Part shown: positions 1 to 10,396 of the stretch, piece by piece
Position numbering within the stretch: the stretch's first letter is position 1
How the letters are laid out: every line of letters starts with the position of its first letter
Origin: Clostridia bacterium
GTDB taxonomy: Bacteria; Bacillota; Clostridia; Christensenellales; Aristaeellaceae
Length of the DNA: 12,957 nucleotides
Direction: 5' to 3'
NCBI GenBank assembly: GCA_045599485.1
Contig: JAZRWA010000087.1
Span: 1 to 12,957, forward strand
Notes under the pieces: model-generated
What the model was told of the DNA's origin: nothing
Database searches by the model: none
What the model saw: the letters and a program-made list of their open reading frames with translations, nothing else
Program-made: the position numbers and the translations under genes

Positions 1-1580
<1,580 letters not shown>

Positions 1581-1697: not shown

Positions 1698-1719
1698 CAT
1701 TTTGATGCATAAGAGAGGA

Positions 1720-3555
1720 TCAGTAAATGCGTACCTCGAAGATGACCGCATCGGGCGCGCCGTGAGTGGCAAGGGTTTCCACACGCACCGTATCGCAGAG
1801 GATCGATTCAAAGGGGACGACGTTGAGGCGCTGCAGGTTGCCGCGGATGGAGCGGCGGGCGGTCTCTTTGCCGTCCTTCAGCAGCACGACATCGTAGTCG
1901 CGCACCAGCTCGGGCGGGGTGCTCTTGACCTGCTCAGTGGCGCGGACGGAGGACAGCGTCAGCTTGATGGACTTGCTGAGGTTGGGATCGAAAACAAGGC
2001 GCACCTCGCTGACCGCTTTGCATTCGGACAGCTTCAGCGTGAGGGTGCCCTGCGGACCGTCGGCCTTCCAGCAGTTGCTGTTTTCGCCTTCGCTGCGGCT
2101 GACGCCGTTGATGACGTTGACGGCGGGTTCCTTTTCGCTGTCGGCACTGACAGCGGCGGTAAGGGCCAGATCGGCGGGGTCTTCGTTCTTGAAGCCGGGG
2201 ATGTAGCAGTCATCCTTCAAAAGGGTCTGCTGCAGCTCATGGATATCGATGCCGCGGATGGAGGTGCCGCCCGCAAGGGCCAGCGCCGCCGCCGTGCCGA
2301 TGGCCTGACCGCCTACGGCGCAGGTGCCCATCACGCGGGTGGAGGCCATGGCCAGCTTGCTGGCGCTCAGGCTGCGGCCGCTGATGAACAGGTTTTCGGT
2401 ATTTTTGGCCAGATAGCTGCGGTAGGGGATGGTGTACAGGCCGTCAAAGGGATAGATCTCACTGGGCATCCTGTCAAAGTCGAACAGGCCGTGCTCGATG
2501 TGGTTGTCGACCGCCCAGCCGCCGTAGGCCACGGCGTCGTCAAAGACACGGTTCTCCAACAGGTCGTTTTCGTTGAGGATGTAATCGCCTTCCATGCGGC
2601 GGCTCTCGCGCATGCCGGGCAGCATGCCCACCCATTCCAGATCGTAGTTGGCGGCACCGTGATTGCCGCCGTTTTTGATGTGATCCCAGACGCCGTAGAT
2701 GCAGTTGAACAGCTCGTCACGAATGTCCTCAAACTGCTCGATGATGTCGCCCTTATCGCCGTTGATCTCGATCCACCAGTAGCCGTAATCCATGCAGTAG
2801 CTGTCGGTCATCAGGGCGAGCGCCTTTTTATCCACGCTTTCGATGAGCGCGTCGGCTTTTTCTTCCAGCTGCGGCCCGATCAGGTCGGCATGCTTGCGGT
2901 AGCGCAGCTGCTCCTCGGTAAAATGACGGGCGGTTTTGGGCGGGGTGAACGGAACGGGCTCGCCGCGGTTGACGGCCTTGAACAGCAGGGTGTTGCCCAT
3001 GCGGTGATCATCGGGCTCGGCGGGGGCATGCGGCTCGTTGAATTCGGCCTTGCCCTCACTGCCGGTGCGGAAGGGAACGCCCGCAAAATAGGCCAGCGTG
3101 CCGTTGCCCGTGCAGTCGGCAAAAATATCGGCGCTGATGGTCCATTCGGTCTCGGTGGTCATCTGCCAGCAGCGGATGGATTGGACACGGCCGTTTTCAC
3201 ATGCGGCATCGTGCATGGTGGTATTGAGAAAAACGGTCAGATTCTTTTCACGGGAGGCTTCAAACAGTACACGATCCCACGTTGAAAAATTGAAATAGCG
3301 GTTGACGGCCTTGTTGCTGAGCAGGATCTCACGCAGGATGCCGCCCTCCTCGGCGTTGGGCTTGGTCTCATCCGCCGAGGCACCGCAGATGTGCATGCGG
3401 ATCTCGCTGGAAGCGTTGCCGCCGAACACGGGACGCTCCTGAATGAGCGCCGTGCGCGCGCCGTGACGCGCCGCGGCAATGGCGGCGATGAGGCCGTTCA
3501 TGCCGCCGCCCACGACGCAGAACTGAAAGGATGCCTGCTTTTCACGTGCTTTCAT
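1720..3555 (-). CDS. FAD-dependent oxidoreductase (GxGxxG Rossmann N-terminus, FAD_oxidored-like) with a C-terminal beta-sandwich/discoidin-like domain of about 150 aa
   Basis: Uninterrupted 611-aa ORF. The N-terminus FCVVGGGMNGLIAAIAAARHGARTALIQERPVFGGNASSE is a dinucleotide-binding motif. AGGAGGAAGAAGA lies directly upstream of the ATG at 3555. The stop is TGA, followed by a terminator. Substrate is unknown. Confidence 0.8.
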   Translation of the reverse strand: MKAREKQASFQFCVVGGGMNGLIAAIAAARHGARTALIQERPVFGGNASSEIRMHICGASADETKPNAEEGGILREILLSNKAVNRYFNFSTWDRVLFEASREKNLTVFLNTTMHDAACENGRVQSIRCWQMTTETEWTISADIFADCTGNGTLAYFAGVPFRTGSEGKAEFNEPHAPAEPDDHRMGNTLLFKAVNRGEPVPFTPPKTARHFTEEQLRYRKHADLIGPQLEEKADALIESVDKKALALMTDSYCMDYGYWWIEINGDKGDIIEQFEDIRDELFNCIYGVWDHIKNGGNHGAANYDLEWVGMLPGMRESRRMEGDYILNENDLLENRVFDDAVAYGGWAVDNHIEHGLFDFDRMPSEIYPFDGLYTIPYRSYLAKNTENLFISGRSLSASKLAMASTRVMGTCAVGGQAIGTAAALALAGGTSIRGIDIHELQQTLLKDDCYIPGFKNEDPADLALTAAVSADSEKEPAVNVINGVSRSEGENSNCWKADGPQGTLTLKLSECKAVSEVRLVFDPNLSKSIKLTLSSVRATEQVKSTPPELVRDYDVVLLKDGKETARRSIRGNLQRLNVVPFESILCDTVRVETLATHGAPDAVIFEVRIY

Positions 3556-4259
3556 TCTTCTTCCTCCTTGAGCGTGAATCGGGTGGAATCGAGATCGATC
3601 TCCCCGGGCTTTTTGACAAAGATGGCGAATTTGATGGGGACGCCTTCGGCGGCGTATTTCATTTCGTGCTCGGTGAGATAGTTGGGGGTGAAGCCGTCGG
3701 CGTGCAGATCACGGGTGAGGTGGCGGCACTCAAAGCCGCAGACCTCAAAATACCGGAGAGAATCGTTGAACAGGGCGTCATCATCGGTCTTGAACCAGAT
3801 CTCGCCCCCGTCGACCAGAAAGGTGCGGTACTGCATCAGCTGGCGGGGATGGGTTAGGCGGCGCTTGTGGTGCTTCAAGCGTTCCGCCCACGGATTGCAG
3901 AAGCTGATGTAGATCCTTTCCACCCGGTCCTCTGCCGAAAACGCCTTGTATATGTAGCTGATGTCAAACTTGACCAGCTTCAGGTTGCGGACGGGTTCAT
4001 CGCCGTAGGCGGCGGCGACGTTGCGGCGGGCATTGCCCAGTACATCGGCGGAAATGTCAAAGGCGGCATAGTTGACGCTGGGGTTTTCATGCGCCATGAC
4101 CGCGGTGGATACACCCTTGCCGCAGCCCAGTTCGACATGCAGCGGCTACTCTTTTTCAAAGCTCTGCCGCCAATGACCGCAGAGCGTTTCCGGCTCACGG
4201 GTAAAGTACCCGCACTCCGTCAGTTCGGGCAGCGCCCACTTTTTCTTCCGCATATGCAT
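3552..4259 (-). CDS. trmB: tRNA (guanine46-N7)-methyltransferase, full length only if the in-frame TAG at 4146-4148 is translated
   Basis: - strand translation from ATG 4259 (alternative 4253): MHMRKKKWALPELTECGYFTREPETLCGHWRQSFEKE-TAG-PLHVELGCGKGVSTAVMAHENPSVNYAAFDIS...FCNPWAERLKHHKRRLT...FKTDD. This is colinear with TrmB (from memory, B. subtilis ...WNTVFGNDNPIHIEVGTGKG...). The ORF-track product (3552..4097) starts after the SAM-binding GxGxG motif. The promoter lies upstream of 4259. The TGA stop overlaps the next ATG (ATGA). Confidence 0.85.
4146..4148 (-). other. in-frame TAG inside trmB (candidate sense or readthrough codon)
   Basis: Context gaa aaa gag TAG ccg ctg cat. It is 51 nt upstream of, and in frame with, the ORF-track ATG at 4097, and 105 or 111 nt downstream of ATG 4253 or 4259. 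Confidence 0.85.
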
Positions 4260-4330: not shown

Positions 4331-4358
4331 ACAAAAAAGCGGCCCCCGAAGGGACCGC
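4331..4358 (-). terminator. rho-independent terminator of the Cys-rich protein gene
   Basis: - strand RNA: GCGGUCCC UUCG GGGGCCGC followed by UUUUUUG. This is an 8-bp GC-rich stem with one G-U pair, a UUCG tetraloop and a U6 tract. It begins about 20 nt after the TAA at 4378-4380, not after the TAG at 4489-4491. Confidence 0.85.
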
Positions 4359-4377
4359 GGTAGAGCAGGAGAAACGA

Positions 4378-5169
4378 TTACTGGGGCGGGTTGCCTTTCC
4401 AGAAATGATTGCAGACGGTGCAGGTAAGGGGATAATAGCCGTTGTGCCATTCGCCGCTGGCATCCTCATAACCTTCGACCCAATCGCCCTAGTTGGCAAA
4501 ATCCCAGCAGCTGCTGACTTCATAGACATTGCCGCAGATGGTGCAGCTGTACTGGTGGCTGTCATCACCAATGTACTTGCAGGTAACATTGCAGCGTTCG
4601 GAGAGCTCTTTACCGCAGCCGGCGCAAACACCGTCATGGCTGTTGTCGCCGTCCCAGCACCAGTCGACCACATGGCCGGCATTGCTGCCGAAGTTGCGGT
4701 AATCCACATAACGGCAGACCTGGCAGATGCGGCGTTCCTCACCCTTGCGGACACAGGTGGCTTCGCGCAGGGTCTTCCATTTGCCCCAGGTATGGACGTG
4801 GACCAGCACACGGCAGGCACCGCAGTCGGTGCAGGAGAATACGTCAAAATCGCCTGCCACTTCGGCGGTCTCGCCAAAGATATGACCGGAAGCGTCATCG
4901 CTGCTCAACAGATCGGCCAGCCCGGACGTGACTTTGGAGGCGACGATGGCAAGAACGTTGCTCTCGTCCACCTTGACATTGACAGTGCCCAGTACGGCAC
5001 CGTTATCGTCCGTCCAGGTCACGGTGGCTTCGCCGGCACCGGCGGGGACCAGCATGGACATGCCCTCGACAGTCACAACGGCTTCATTGGAAGAGGTGAC
5101 GGCGGCCAGGGCAGTGGTGATGCCCATCAGCATCAGGCAGATGAGCAGCGCGGTCAGCATTTTTTTCAT
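4378..5169 (-). CDS. secreted cysteine-rich protein of unknown function (signal peptide plus multiple CxxC motifs); contains an in-frame TAG at 4489-4491
   Basis: ATG at 5169 with GGAGG (5177-5181) 7 nt upstream. MKKMLTALLICLMLMGITTALAAV is a signal peptide. The C-terminal half has about 16 Cys in CxxC, CxxCxxC and CxxxC spacings. The frame stays open for 36 codons after the TAG (GDWVEGYEDASGEWHNGYYPLTCTVCNHFWKGNPPQ, which includes another CxxC) up to TAA 4378-4380 and then the terminator. The track start at 5235 is an upstream in-frame ATG with no RBS. Confidence 0.7.
4489..4491 (-). other. in-frame TAG inside the Cys-rich protein gene (candidate sense or readthrough codon)
   Basis: Context ttt gcc aac TAG ggc gat tgg. 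After it come 36 more open codons, then TAA and a strong terminator. Confidence 0.75.
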
Positions 5170-5206
5170 GAGCAGTCCTCCGTTTTTTAGGATCAAAACT
5201 GTTGAA

Positions 5207-5235
5207 ATTATAGCCATTCGGATGAAAATTGTCAA
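5207..5235 (-). promoter_or_regulatory. consensus sigma-A promoter for the Cys-rich protein gene
   Basis: - strand: TTGACA (5230-5235), 17-nt spacer, TATAAT (5207-5212). It is divergent from the rplJ promoter. Confidence 0.6.
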
Positions 5236-5257
5236 TGATGCGGGCGGAAAAAAGTGC

Positions 5258-5286
5258 TTGACAAAAGGCGTGGGCTGGAGTATGAT
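5258..5286 (+). promoter_or_regulatory. sigma-A promoter for rplJ-rplL
   Basis: TTGACA (5258-5263), 17-nt spacer, TATGAT (5281-5286). Confidence 0.65.
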
Positions 5287-6441: not shown

Positions 6442-6475
6442 TGCGCGGGGGTTCTTTCCCCATGTCCCCTGCTAC

Positions 6476-6504
6476 TTGCACGGAAACGGTGATTTTGGTA
6501 TAAT
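6476..6504 (+). promoter_or_regulatory. sigma-A promoter for the SH3b-NlpC/P60 gene (and probably mnmG)
   Basis: TTGCAC (6476-6481), 17-nt spacer ending in TGg (extended -10), TATAAT (6499-6504). GGAGG at 6524-6528 lies 6 nt before ATG 6535. Confidence 0.55.
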
Positions 6505-6534
6505 AAGAAGTGATTTTTTGCCCGGAGGTAAGGT

Positions 6535-8247
6535 ATGCTGAAACGCGCTTTGGCCTTGACCGCGTTTGTACTGATGATGCTGTGCCTGCTCGCCTGCGCA
6601 TACGGCGAGGAGAGCTTTTTTGCCTATTACGGGGAGGAACGGTGGATTCGCCGTGAGCCGGTCAGCGGCAGCAGCGGCGTGGCCGAATTGCCTGCCAACA
6701 CGGTGGTGAAGCTGACCCCTGTCAATGGCAGCTATGCCGCGGTCAGCTACAACGGCAAGGATGGCTATCTGTATTATCCCGAAGCCAACAGGGTGGACAT
6801 GACCGATCCCATGAGCCCCGACGCTGTGTGGGTGGAGGGCAGCTTTGAGGAAGAGGCCGTTCTTCGCCGCGCACCGCTGAAGAATTCCTCCCGTGTGGCG
6901 AATGTGCCCGCCGGGGAACGTGTGCGGGCAACAGCGGTCAACAGCACCTATCTGTATCTGGAATACGGCGGCAAAAGCGGCTATGCCCTTCGGGAACAGT
7001 TTGCCCAGACCGTTTATCCCTCGGGCATCGTGCTGCCCTACATTGTGTATGCCAAGTCGGAAGTGGTGCTGTACAACGGCCCCTATGCCGATTCCGCTGC
7101 TGTGGGCAGCCTCAAGGTCAACACGCCCACGCTGGCGGTGGGCTATGACGGCGAAAGCCTGCTGGTGCAGCAGGACGGTGCCCTGTATTATGCTCCCGCG
7201 CAGAGCCTGACCGTGCTGGAAGGCAATTATGACACCGAGGATTTTGATGCCGCGCTGGCGTCTGCGGCGGATATTCTGGAATATCCCCTGACCAATGCAC
7301 GGGTGATCGGCAAGGGTAAAAAGAAGGCCGCTGTGACGGTACACGCCTTCTTTGGCGAGTACGCCTATCTGACCTGCGGCAGCTATGTGGGCTATGTGCA
7401 CTACAGCAAGCTGCAGGCAACCAAAAACACCAAAGACGCCATGGATGCCATGCAGCGGCAGATCCTCAAACAAAAGGGCCGCAGGTATCTGGAGATCGCT
7501 TTCCAGATGCTGTAGGAGGATAACCCCATCCTGCAGTATTATAACCGTTACTGCCAGGGCAACGCGGTGGCGCGTTTCCGTTACGGCTGCCCCTATTTCT
7601 ACGGCGGCTATAACGAAAACATCCTGCTCAAGGTGTACCGCACGTGGCAGAACAGCCATTATTATCTGATGAGCAACCGCTATCTGGGCGGCTTTGACTG
7701 CATCGGCTTTGCCCGCTGGGTGCATACCACCGCCGGAGATGCGACGCTGCCCGCCATCAGCAAGGTGCGCTCGGACGGACGCAATAACCTGGTGGATGTC
7801 GGCAATTTGCCCTATGACGAGTGGCAGAATGTGCTGCTGGCCGGCGACTGTGTCAACATCGCCTATTCCGGTGGCGGCTATCACATTGGCATTTATATCG
7901 GCACGCTGCGGGAATTTGGCTTCACCGAGGAGGATGTGGGCGAGCCGCTGGCCCCCTATATGGATCGCCCCCTCATCATTCACTGCGGCATGAACAATTT
8001 CCATACCGAATGGTATGCCAAATACCTGAAGGAAAACGGCCTGTCCTCCGTGACTCCGCCCGATGGCGGCGTGACCATCTCGGTCATGGGCGTGGACTTT
8101 GAAAACTGCCCCTATACCGAAACCATGTGGCAGGGGACGGCTAACGTGAAAACCTTTTATTGGTTTGACCTGATGGGCTATAATCTGACGGTCATCAACC
8201 CCATCGGCAGCAATGTGCGCTGGATGGCGGTCTATCGCAGCAAATAA
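6535..8247 (+). CDS. exported cell-wall hydrolase: signal/lipoprotein peptide, about four SH3b-like repeats and a C-terminal NlpC/P60 cysteine peptidase domain. It is a single ORF only if the TAG at 7513-7515 is translated
   Basis: MLKRALALTAFVLMMLCLLAC is a signal peptide with a lipobox-like LLAC. Repeats resemble VVKLTPVNGSYAAVSYNGKDGYLY and RVRATAVNSTYLYLEYGGKSGYAL. ORFs 6535..7515 and 7567..8247 share a frame, and codons 7516-7566 contain no stop. The NlpC/P60 motifs are YGCPYFYGG, GGFDCIGFARWVH (catalytic Cys) and GGGYHIGIYIG (His). The downstream part has no signal peptide, and its track start (GTG 7567) has no RBS. The gene ends with a TAA TAA double stop at 8245-8250. Confidence 0.75.
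7513..7515 (+). other. in-frame TAG between the SH3b repeats and the NlpC/P60 domain (candidate sense or readthrough codon)
   Basis: Context cag atg ctg TAG gag gat aac. The same frame continues EDNPILQYYNRYCQGNAVARFRYGCPYFYGG. Confidence 0.65.
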
Positions 8248-8268
8248 TAAAGAGGCCTTGAAAAACGA

Positions 8269-10032
8269 ATGTTTGATATAATCGTGATCGGAGCGGGGCA
8301 TGCCGGGTGCGAGGCAGCACTCGCGGCGGCCCGCATGGGTCTGGAAACGCTGCTGTTTACCCTGAATCTGGACGCGGTGGCCCTGATGGCCTGCAATCCC
8401 GCCATCGGCGGCACGGGCAAGGGGCATCTGGTACGCGAGGTGGATGCTTTGGGCGGCGAAATGGGCCGCGCTATTGACGATACCACGCTGCAGAGCCGCA
8501 TGCTGAACATGTCCAAGGGCCCGGCGGTGCACTCGCTGCGTGCGCAGGCGGACAAGCGTGAATATCAAAAGCGCATGAAGCGCGCCCTCTTTGCCCAGGA
8601 ACACCTGACGGTGCGTCAGGGCGAGGTGATGCGCATTGAAACGCTGAACGGCCGCGTCAGCGGCGTGATCACGCGCACCGGCGAGCACATTGCCTGCCGC
8701 GCGGCGGTGGTGTGCACCGGCGTGTATCTGAAGGGGCGTGTGTTTATCGGATAGGCGCAGTGGGAGGCGGGTCCGCAGGGGCTGCTGCCGGCCACGGGGC
8801 TGAGCGAGAGCCTGGCGGATCTGGGCTTTCAGCTGCGCCGCTTCAAGACGGGCACACCGGCGCGTGTGGATGCCAGGTCCATTGATTTTTCTGCCATGGA
8901 GCCGCAGCCGGGCGATGACAGGCCGGTGCCGTTCTCCTTTTTGACTGATCACGCGGTGGAAAACCGCATGATGTGCTACCTGACCTATACCAATCCCGCT
9001 ACGCATCAGATCATTTTGGATAACCTGCACCGGGCGCCCATGTTCAACGGTACCATTCAATCGGCCGGCCCGCGCTATTGCCCTTCCATTGAGAGCAAGA
9101 TCGTGCGCTTTAAGGACAAGGACCGCCATCAGCTGTTTCTGGAGCCCGAGGGCTTCAACGATTCCGAATGGTATGTGCAGGGCATGTCCTCCAGTTTGCC
9201 ATAGGATGTGCAGTGGGCCATGTACCGCACCATTCCCGGGCTGGAGCACTGCATCCTGACCCGTCTGGCGTACGCCATTGAGTATGATTGCATCGACTCG
9301 CTGGCACTGTCGCCCACCCTGGGGGCGCTGCAGGTGCCGGGGTTGTACCTCGCGGGGCAGATCAACGGCACCTCGGGGTATGAGGAGGCCGCGGCACAGG
9401 GCATTCTGGCGGGTATCAATGCCGCGCTGTACGTCAAAGAGCGGGAGCCCTTTGTGCTGACCCGCGATCAGGCGTATATCGGCGTGATGACCGATGACCT
9501 GACCACCAAGGGCACGGATGAGCCCTACCGCATGATGACCAGCCGTGCTGAACACCGGCTTTACCTGCGGCAGGACAATGCCGATCTGCGTTTGACCGCC
9601 CGCGCGCATGCCATCGGGCTGGCGACGGATGAGCGCCTGCGCCGTGCCGAGCAAAAGGCGCGGGAGACCGAGGAGCTGCTGCGGTGGCTCAAGGAAAACC
9701 GCAAGGAGGCGCTGCTGCGCCATCCCGAAAACACGATCGATATGCTTCTGCCCGAGGACGCGCCCTTTGGCGCGGCAGCCCGGGAGGAGGCGGAGATCAG
9801 CGTCAAATACGAGGGCTATCTGGAGCGTGAGCAGGCGGCGGTGCGCAAGGCGCAGGCCATGGAAAACCGTCTGCTGCCGCCCGATACGCCCTATATGGAA
9901 ATTACCGGTCTGCGCATGGAAGCGCGTCAGAAGCTGACGGCACAGCGTCCGCTGTCGCTGGCACAGGCTTCCCGCATTCCCGGGGTATCACCTGCTGACA
10001 TTGCCGTGCTGATGGTATGGCTGCGAAAGTGA
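8269..10032 (+). CDS. mnmG: tRNA uridine 5-carboxymethylaminomethyl modification enzyme MnmG (GidA), intact apart from two in-frame TAG codons (8752-8754, 9202-9204)
   Basis: Three track ORFs (8269..8754, 8866..9204, 9208..10032) are all in frame 1 and together give a colinear Mnm[25 protein letters not shown] ... [60 protein letters not shown] ... [44 protein letters not shown] ... [21 protein letters not shown] ... [20 protein letters not shown]. The stop is TGA. Confidence 0.9.
8752..8754 (+). other. first in-frame TAG inside mnmG
   Basis: Context ttt atc gga TAG gcg cag tgg. The conserved [11 protein letters not shown] motif follows in the same frame, 29 codons later. Confidence 0.9.
9202..9204 (+). 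other. second in-frame TAG inside mnmG
   Basis: Context agt ttg cca TAG gat gtg cag. It sits inside the conserved S-S-L-P-x-D-V-Q ... GLE ... YAIEYD block. Confidence 0.9.
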
Positions 10033-10042
10033 GGGGAAGAGC

Positions 10043-10396
10043 GTGGGACTGAAGGATAAACTGCTGCGGATGCTGCTGACGCCACAAACGGTGCGGCAGA
10101 CGTCGGAAGAACTGGTGCTGCGCTTTGCCGCGGCATCCCGCCTGCCGGAGGAGGCCAAAGGGTATCTGAAGGACGCGGAAGCCATTTTGCGCCTTAAAAA
10201 AGGTATCAGGCAGGTAGAGACCGACCTTGCGACCGGTACGGTGACCCTGCAGCTCGATCAATTGAAGCCGGAGGAAGCGCTCCGTTGGGTCAATCATGTG
10301 CTGGATGCCGTGCCCGGGGCGGTGAGTCAGATCAACGCCGGTCAGAGCAAGGCAAAGGTGATGAGTGACCTGCAAAAGCACTTTGAAAATGAATAA
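10043..10396 (+). CDS. hypothetical small protein (117 aa), possibly a ferredoxin-like/HMA-like fold without metal-binding cysteines
   Basis: GTG start at 10043 with GAGGGG 6 nt upstream. G/C third-position bias matches the neighbouring genes. The stop is TAA. The segment GIRQVETDLATGTVTLQLD resembles the beta-hairpin of HMA domains, but there is no CxxC. I recognise no family. Confidence 0.45.
   Translation: MGLKDKLLRMLLTPQTVRQTSEELVLRFAAASRLPEEAKGYLKDAEAILRLKKGIRQVETDLATGTVTLQLDQLKPEEALRWVNHVLDAVPGAVSQINAGQSKAKVMSDLQKHFENE

Follow-up and report, generated by a model that had tools for sequence, protein, structure and literature searches.

The codon UAG is very probably read as sense, or very efficiently suppressed, in the Clostridia bacterium represented by the window (the whole stretch of DNA that was analysed, 12,957 nucleotides of contig JAZRWA010000087.1) and in its sister species, with the TAG at codon 227 of a cysteine-rich gene being translated. 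That TAG is very probably one visible instance of UAG decoding throughout the clade. Five in-frame TAGs are found in the window, one each in trmB, the cysteine-rich gene and an SH3-NlpC/P60 hydrolase and two in mnmG (Table 1), and reading TAG as sense restores these four otherwise broken genes. In-frame TGA, in-frame TAA and frameshifts are all absent from the genes of the window. TAG is the final stop in none of its ten complete genes; with a TAG frequency of only 3% among the stops of the outgroups, ten genes are too few to be decisive.

Table 1. Positions in the window of the cysteine-rich gene, its expression signals and the in-frame TAG codons.
Feature	Position	Strand	Remarks
Sigma-70 promoter of the cysteine-rich gene	5207..5235	-	TTGACA-17-TATAAT, 12/12 consensus match
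Shine-Dalgarno GGAGG	5177..5181	-	7 nt upstream of ATG; read from the sequence
Full cysteine-rich gene	4378..5169	-	ATG 5169-5167; 263 codons and TAA
In-frame TAG, codon 227	4489..4491	-	TGG (Trp) in relatives, the conserved Trp of the GNW motif in the last repeat
36-codon tail	4381..4488	-	Carries CxxC of the last repeat; coding score; 32/36 residues identical in the sister species
True stop TAA	4378..4380	-	Common to all relatives
Intrinsic terminator	4331..4358	-	8-bp stem, UUCG loop, U6; kept in the sister species
trmB in-frame TAG	4146..4148	-	Gene 4259-3552; directly ahead of GCGKG, the SAM-binding motif; CAG (Gln) in relatives
Hydrolase in-frame TAG	7513..7515	+	Lipoprotein gene 6535-8247; TAG joins the SH3 and NlpC/P60 halves
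mnmG in-frame TAG, codon 162	8752..8754	+	Gene 8269-10032; GAG/Glu in all relatives and outgroups
mnmG in-frame TAG, codon 312	9202..9204	+	GAG/Glu in all relatives and outgroups

The preliminary description had placed the open reading frame, the TAG, the TAA and the terminator correctly, and direct reading also confirms that the frame stays open for 36 codons from the TAG to the TAA. These sense codons encode GDWVEGYEDASGEWHNGYYPLTCTVCNHFWKGNPPQ, which includes LTCTVCNHFW, and the residues flanking codon 227 (X) are SSCWDFAN-X-GDWVEGYEDASGEWHNGYYPLTCTVCNHFWK. The product is predicted to be secreted, with the signal peptide MKKMLTALLICLMLMGITTALAA followed by H-x-W...C...CxxC repeats. No family in Pfam or NCBIfam was found for it, but the repeat module of about 35 amino acids has the conserved aromatic residue, the single Cys and the CxxC of the secreted proteins with H-x-W...C...CxxC tandem repeats. 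The repeat is matched at E <= 0.001 by 1886 large proteins, most of them with 5-26 tandem repeat stretches. When the tail is aligned with a complete module, the TAG takes the place of the Trp in the last repeat, whose CxxC is provided by the tail; this bears out the earlier suggestion that the CxxC motif fits the Cys pattern upstream.

The tail had also been described as having the same G/C bias in the third codon position as the sequence upstream. GC3 is 0.67 in the tail compared with 0.74 upstream of the TAG, and the codon-usage log-likelihood of the tail is 11.4, where in-frame windows of 36 codons from real genes have a mean of 15.3 (sd 5.1). A value of at least 11.4 was reached by 0.07% of the off-frame windows and by none of the 192 intergenic windows, so the segment scores as coding. 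The open frame alone is not unusual: the probability of 36 open codons by chance is about 0.27 given the base composition, and at least 36 open codons follow two of ten real stops in the window.

Searches among 5.8 billion protein clusters gave only two matches to the cysteine-rich protein. One is the public truncated product of this contig, 226 amino acids long, and the other (P0002) is a protein of 263 amino acids from 'Clostridia bacterium isolate Horse_feces223' with 81% identity. P0002 aligns without gaps and ends in the same final residue, with Trp where the window has TAG; P0002 and its cluster extend past the TAG position to the same TAA, as read-through would predict of a homologue. 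All three syntenic contigs of the sister species, with about 91% DNA identity to the window, have TGG at the position of the TAG and share both the TAA and the terminator with the window. The homologue of 263 amino acids, the repeat structure and the shared TAA together mean that the gene certainly reached the TAA in the recent past.

A terminator had been proposed about 20 nt beyond the TAA, with nothing similar just after the TAG. It was found 19 nt past the TAA, and a scan between TAG and TAA gave no terminator-like site. The stem at 4358-4339, GCGGTCCC-TTCG-GGGGCCGC, has eight pairs of which seven are G-C and is followed by six T (4338-4333), that is, a G+C-rich hairpin with a direct U-tract downstream of a stop, as in Rho-independent termination. 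Hairpin and T-run are kept in three relatives, with a G.U pair shifted within the stem. Terminator-like motifs number 5 in 2.5 kb, where 2.5 are expected. The cysteine-rich gene would form one transcription unit made up of the consensus promoter, the ribosome binding site, the 263-codon frame, the TAA and the intrinsic terminator. Its promoter lies back-to-back with that of rplJ on the + strand, and within 5207-5286 both are near-perfect sigma-70 promoters (12/12 and 11/12).

The terminator after the TAA and the open, codon-biased tail show where the ancestral gene and its transcript ended. The placement of the terminator had been put forward as evidence that the TAG is read through. It does support a reading frame that runs to the TAA, and the earlier conclusion that the frame continues through the TAG is very probably right. 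The argument is nevertheless weaker than claimed, because a recent TGG to TAG mutation would leave an identical tail and terminator, and the placement cannot separate read-through from such a mutation. Present-day read-through is supported by the recurrence of TAGs in conserved genes, by TAG sites that are shared and by purifying selection downstream of them.

A recent nonsense mutation of this kind would have cut a non-essential, fast-evolving protein to 226 amino acids and left the tail and terminator as ancestral leftovers. TGG to TAG is a common single transition, the TAG at codon 227 is present in one assembly only, the open frame could be due to chance, and pseudogene stops often derive from UGG, a caution given by the authors of Codetta (PMC8629427). 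The tail is also too short to reveal ongoing selection: dN/dS is 0.3-0.5 in the 36 codons after the TAG, compared with about 0.3 in the part of the gene before it, a fast evolution because of which separate selection on the tail cannot be demonstrated. However, such a mutation would need to have arisen alongside four further disruptions in 13 kb that are all TAG, with dN/dS of 0-0.1 downstream and with neither frameshift nor TGA or TAA, while the clade keeps one in-frame TAG in all assemblies examined and another across five. Truncation would also orphan Cys221 of the last repeat. An isolated nonsense mutation at codon 227 is an unlikely explanation.

In the hydrolase, the TAG is found in every clade assembly examined, including the window and three sister-species contigs. 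Assemblies from NCBI, ENA and Logan yield at least eight distinct SH3 products of 326 amino acids that stop at this TAG, whereas in about 30 outgroups the homologue (51-59% identical) is a single protein of about 570 amino acids that runs across the SH3/NlpC junction. The outgroup residue at the position is Glu in 28 of 28 sequences of the protein set and E30/D3/P2 among the genome loci. The only signal peptide of the hydrolase is upstream of the TAG. In the 226 codons of the NlpC/P60 half past the TAG, dN/dS is 0.06-0.09 between two species that both carry the TAG, and the 17-codon linker directly past it has three synonymous and no non-synonymous changes. As the TAG is present in both species, all their divergence arose in its presence. 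The low dN/dS under a shared TAG indicates that the downstream half has been translated throughout, and its export needs fusion to the upstream half.

For this one TAG the gene might instead be split, with SH3 ending at the TAG and NlpC/P60 re-initiated at a non-canonical start by means of an overlapping AGGAGG. The segment TAGGAGGA does contain a perfect Shine-Dalgarno sequence, with ATC and CTG codons 10-13 nt further on. The GAGGAG in it, however, corresponds to Glu-Glu codons that are present in the outgroups too, and no ATG, GTG or TTG is found from the TAG up to the conserved core of NlpC/P60 (NPIL..YN..AVARF), which leaves that segment with no canonical start ahead of it. A separate NlpC/P60 protein would lack a signal peptide and yet be under strong purifying selection, and the remaining seven TAG sites would lack an explanation, so that a split gene is very improbable here. 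The AGGAGG that overlaps the TAG resembles a ribosome binding site but equals the Glu-Glu codons of the outgroups. The TAG also lies inside a small hairpin at 7510-7536 (CUGUAGGAGG...CCAUCCUGCAG), and two consecutive TAA codons (8245-8250) close the hydrolase gene.

The four remaining TAGs of the window, including that of the cysteine-rich gene, are specific to its lineage and known from one assembly; opposite them the sister species has CAG, TGG, GAG and GAG. In mnmG, the Pfam GIDA match covers both TAGs as a single stretch. Between the window and the sister species, dN/dS of mnmG after the first TAG is 0.03, and codons 313-587, after the second TAG, show 55 synonymous and no non-synonymous changes. 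The TAG in trmB is at a position where about 75% of the outgroups have Gln and the others A, R or G. The stop codon of trmB shares bases with the start codon of the FAD oxidoreductase gene (ATGA, 3552-3555), which indicates that the two form an operon; each of them has an in-frame TAG somewhere in the clade. Between mnmG and pepC there is a conserved open reading frame of 117 amino acids (10043-10396) with dN/dS of 0.11 against the sister species and no Pfam family. Antisense open reading frames of up to 1083 amino acids at 6472-9723 (-), 82-1521 (+) and 1702-3285 (+) were rejected as genes, being artefacts of G/C-rich third positions.

Three further TAG sites occur in assemblies of the sister species. 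At codon 215 of the FAD oxidoreductase, TAG is carried by five assemblies that derive from different runs, and GAG by the window together with three more contigs of the clade. Codon 167 of the same gene is TAG in one of these five and GAG elsewhere, and codon 99 of SH3 is TAG in one sister-species contig and TGG in the others. Past codon 215, dN/dS between carriers of the TAG is 0.05-0.11; one such comparison has 28 synonymous and 6 non-synonymous changes (dN/dS 0.05). The clade thus has eight TAG sites, counted as six genes, with mnmG, trmB, the hydrolase, the oxidoreductase and the repeat protein as named carriers. TAG makes up only about 1 in 800 codons, and TAG/GAG is polymorphic within a species.

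These sites, which come from NCBI, ENA and Logan and recur across different runs and pipelines, bear on whether the TAGs could be sequencing or assembly artefacts. The window-specific TAGs do come from a single MAG with short contigs, and exact look-ups of the 226-aa fragment, a 161-aa MnmG fragment and PepC did not find the same species in other records. Only 2.5% of random substitutions are nonsense, however, so that four stops would imply about 160 substitutions, and codons 313-587 of mnmG show no non-synonymous difference at all. Among TAG trinucleotides found only in the window, four are in frame and one is out of frame. Random sequencing error is excluded by the recurrent TAG sites and the selection figures, and an artefact of any kind is an extremely remote explanation for the TAGs.

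The in-frame stops lie in conserved genes at positions that can be aligned and are followed by sequence under purifying selection (dN/dS 0-0.1), as is expected when a stop codon has been reassigned. The TAGs differ from the decay of pseudogenes in that they are the only disruptions, are accompanied by no frameshift and have low dN/dS downstream, and an origin as pseudogenes is very unlikely. The occurrence of only TAG, never TGA or TAA, proved to be a weak argument, since 62% of random nonsense mutations in these genes would be TAG (0.62^8 = 0.02).

The inserted residue is most likely glutamate. The codons replaced at the eight sites are five GAG, one CAG and two TGG, that is, not uniformly Glu but also Gln and Trp, and at three of the five GAG sites Glu is found in every or nearly every outgroup compared. 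A calculation based on codon usage and on the transition/transversion ratio observed attributes only 12% of the expected TAG-creating mutations to changes from GAG and 37% to changes from CAG. The probability of five or more out of eight from GAG is 0.0012, which with eight sites is a lead and not a proof. The excess of GAG fits silent GAG to TAG changes, that is, UAG read as Glu, and is unexpected for Gln. A point against it is that codon 227 read as Glu would swap the Trp of the repeat motif for Glu.

UAG might alternatively be decoded as something else: as Gln by a suppressor tRNA of supE type or of phage origin, as pyrrolysine, or by near-cognate read-through after loss of RF1, possibly in competition with termination. 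This would agree with Q and W among the replaced residues, with the usual reading of reassigned UAG as Gln in gut phages and as pyrrolysine in archaea, and with the different number of TAGs between strains. If UAG were Gln, silent CAG to TAG changes should dominate, but CAG is found at one site only, and five sites are GAG, three of them with Glu in all or nearly all outgroups compared. The context of methylamine methyltransferases expected for pyrrolysine is not seen among the TAG-bearing genes. A residue other than Glu is a possibility of some weight but rather doubtful. That an uncultured genus of Clostridia from herbivore guts, comprising the species of the window and strains like 'Horse_feces223', has a new code at an early stage with UAG as Glu is a proposal for which the chances seem evenly balanced.

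If UAG is read as Glu, a tRNA with anticodon CUA would be expected to read it. The simplest origin would be a tRNA-Glu(CUC) gene with one base changed in the anticodon, charged by a GluRS that tolerates the change at position 36, while RF1 would be lost or weakened. TAGs would then build up chiefly by silent GAG to TAG changes, and at codon 227 by TGG to TAG instead. The scans of the window for tRNA genes and Rfam families gave no hits, and tRNA scans of 38 loci gave no CUA anticodon. A pattern scan of JGI metagenomes for a tRNA-Glu-like anticodon arm with CUA gave no tRNA, its two hits being chance matches in low-GC contigs, and release-factor motifs were absent from all fetched loci. The clade data consist of contigs of 13 kb or less.

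No shared RNA element of the PYLIS or SECIS kind was found downstream of the TAGs. Strong hairpins occur at two TAG sites. The one in mnmG, a long hairpin at 8754-8840 (-59 kcal/mol, z = -4.0), begins directly after the TAG at codon 162; it is not a recoding signal, as the sister species has this hairpin too, next to a GAG codon.

The scan of genome contigs returned, besides outgroups, a single clade member (Horse_feces223). In-frame stops are absent from these genes in the outgroups, which are about 55% identical. In the outgroup family (L014-L030), 153 genes end in TAA (89), TGA (59) or TAG (5), a TAA-rich and TAG-poor usage that is unusual for 55-63% G+C. Such a usage may have been a precondition for freeing TAG. 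The nearest named relatives belong to Candidatus Ventricola, with TrmB 65-67% identical, and 'species C' (JGI 3300020112, 6.7 kb), which is more distantly related, has no in-frame TAG. Two proteins, P0040 and P0055, were rejected as intermediate relatives because they are chimeric fusions in which an NlpC/P60 C-terminus is joined to unrelated membrane proteins. The 3' end of contig L053 (1928-2363) does not align with the relatives and, like P0040 and P0055, is probably an assembly chimera.

The reading of UAG as an amino acid by a free-living gut bacterium would, if true, be the first natural amber reassignment in a bacterial chromosome and the fourth bacterial code. It would also be a reassignment in progress, with a stop that is rare in outgroups, TAG/GAG polymorphism within a species and unequal TAG loads in sister species, which would make the codon-capture and ambiguous-intermediate models directly testable. 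There is a practical consequence for annotation, since gene callers and NCBI split or truncate genes with TAG, as in the public products of 226, 326 and 214 amino acids. The code would further bear on the conflict between the codes of gut phages and their hosts.

All known code changes in bacteria reassign UGA (Shulgina & Eddy 2021, PMC8629427), and a literature search found no bacterial reassignment of UAG. The bacterial codes 4 and 25 (UGA to Trp and UGA to Gly) are similar in having in-frame stops in conserved genes and a codon that was rare in outgroups beforehand, but here the codon is UAG, which is read by RF1, whereas UGA is read by RF2. According to the literature, UAG has been reassigned across whole genomes only to pyrrolysine, in certain archaea (Kivenson et al., bioRxiv 10.1101/2024.09.30.615893), and to Gln, in phages. 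The archaeal code, and the use of pyrrolysine in some bacteria, resemble the reading proposed for the clade in that UAG is sense in many genes and TAG a rare terminator. The pyrrolysine code needs pylTSBCD and is genome-wide only in archaea, while in this clade TAG occupies positions of conserved Glu and the genes concerned do not include a methylamine methyltransferase.

The reassignment of UAG to Gln is known in gut phages ('code 15' in crAss-like, Lak and other phages with suppressor tRNAs), which would share with the clade an in-frame sense TAG in the gut and presumably a tRNA with anticodon CUA. In the clade, however, the TAGs are in chromosomal housekeeping genes (mnmG and trmB, near rplJ/rplL and PFOR), and the replaced codons suggest Glu and not Gln. 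Peritrich ciliates and Blastocrithidia have nuclear codes in which UAR is read as Glu. They resemble the proposed code in that UAG is Glu, but they are eukaryotic nuclear codes with UAA reassigned as well, whereas TAA stays the main terminator in the clade. Laboratory amber suppressors (supE and others) and E. coli with RF1 deleted would be comparable in that one base changes in the anticodon and RF1 is dispensable once TAG is rare. Those strains were engineered or selected; the clade would be a natural lineage in which TAGs are fixed in conserved genes.
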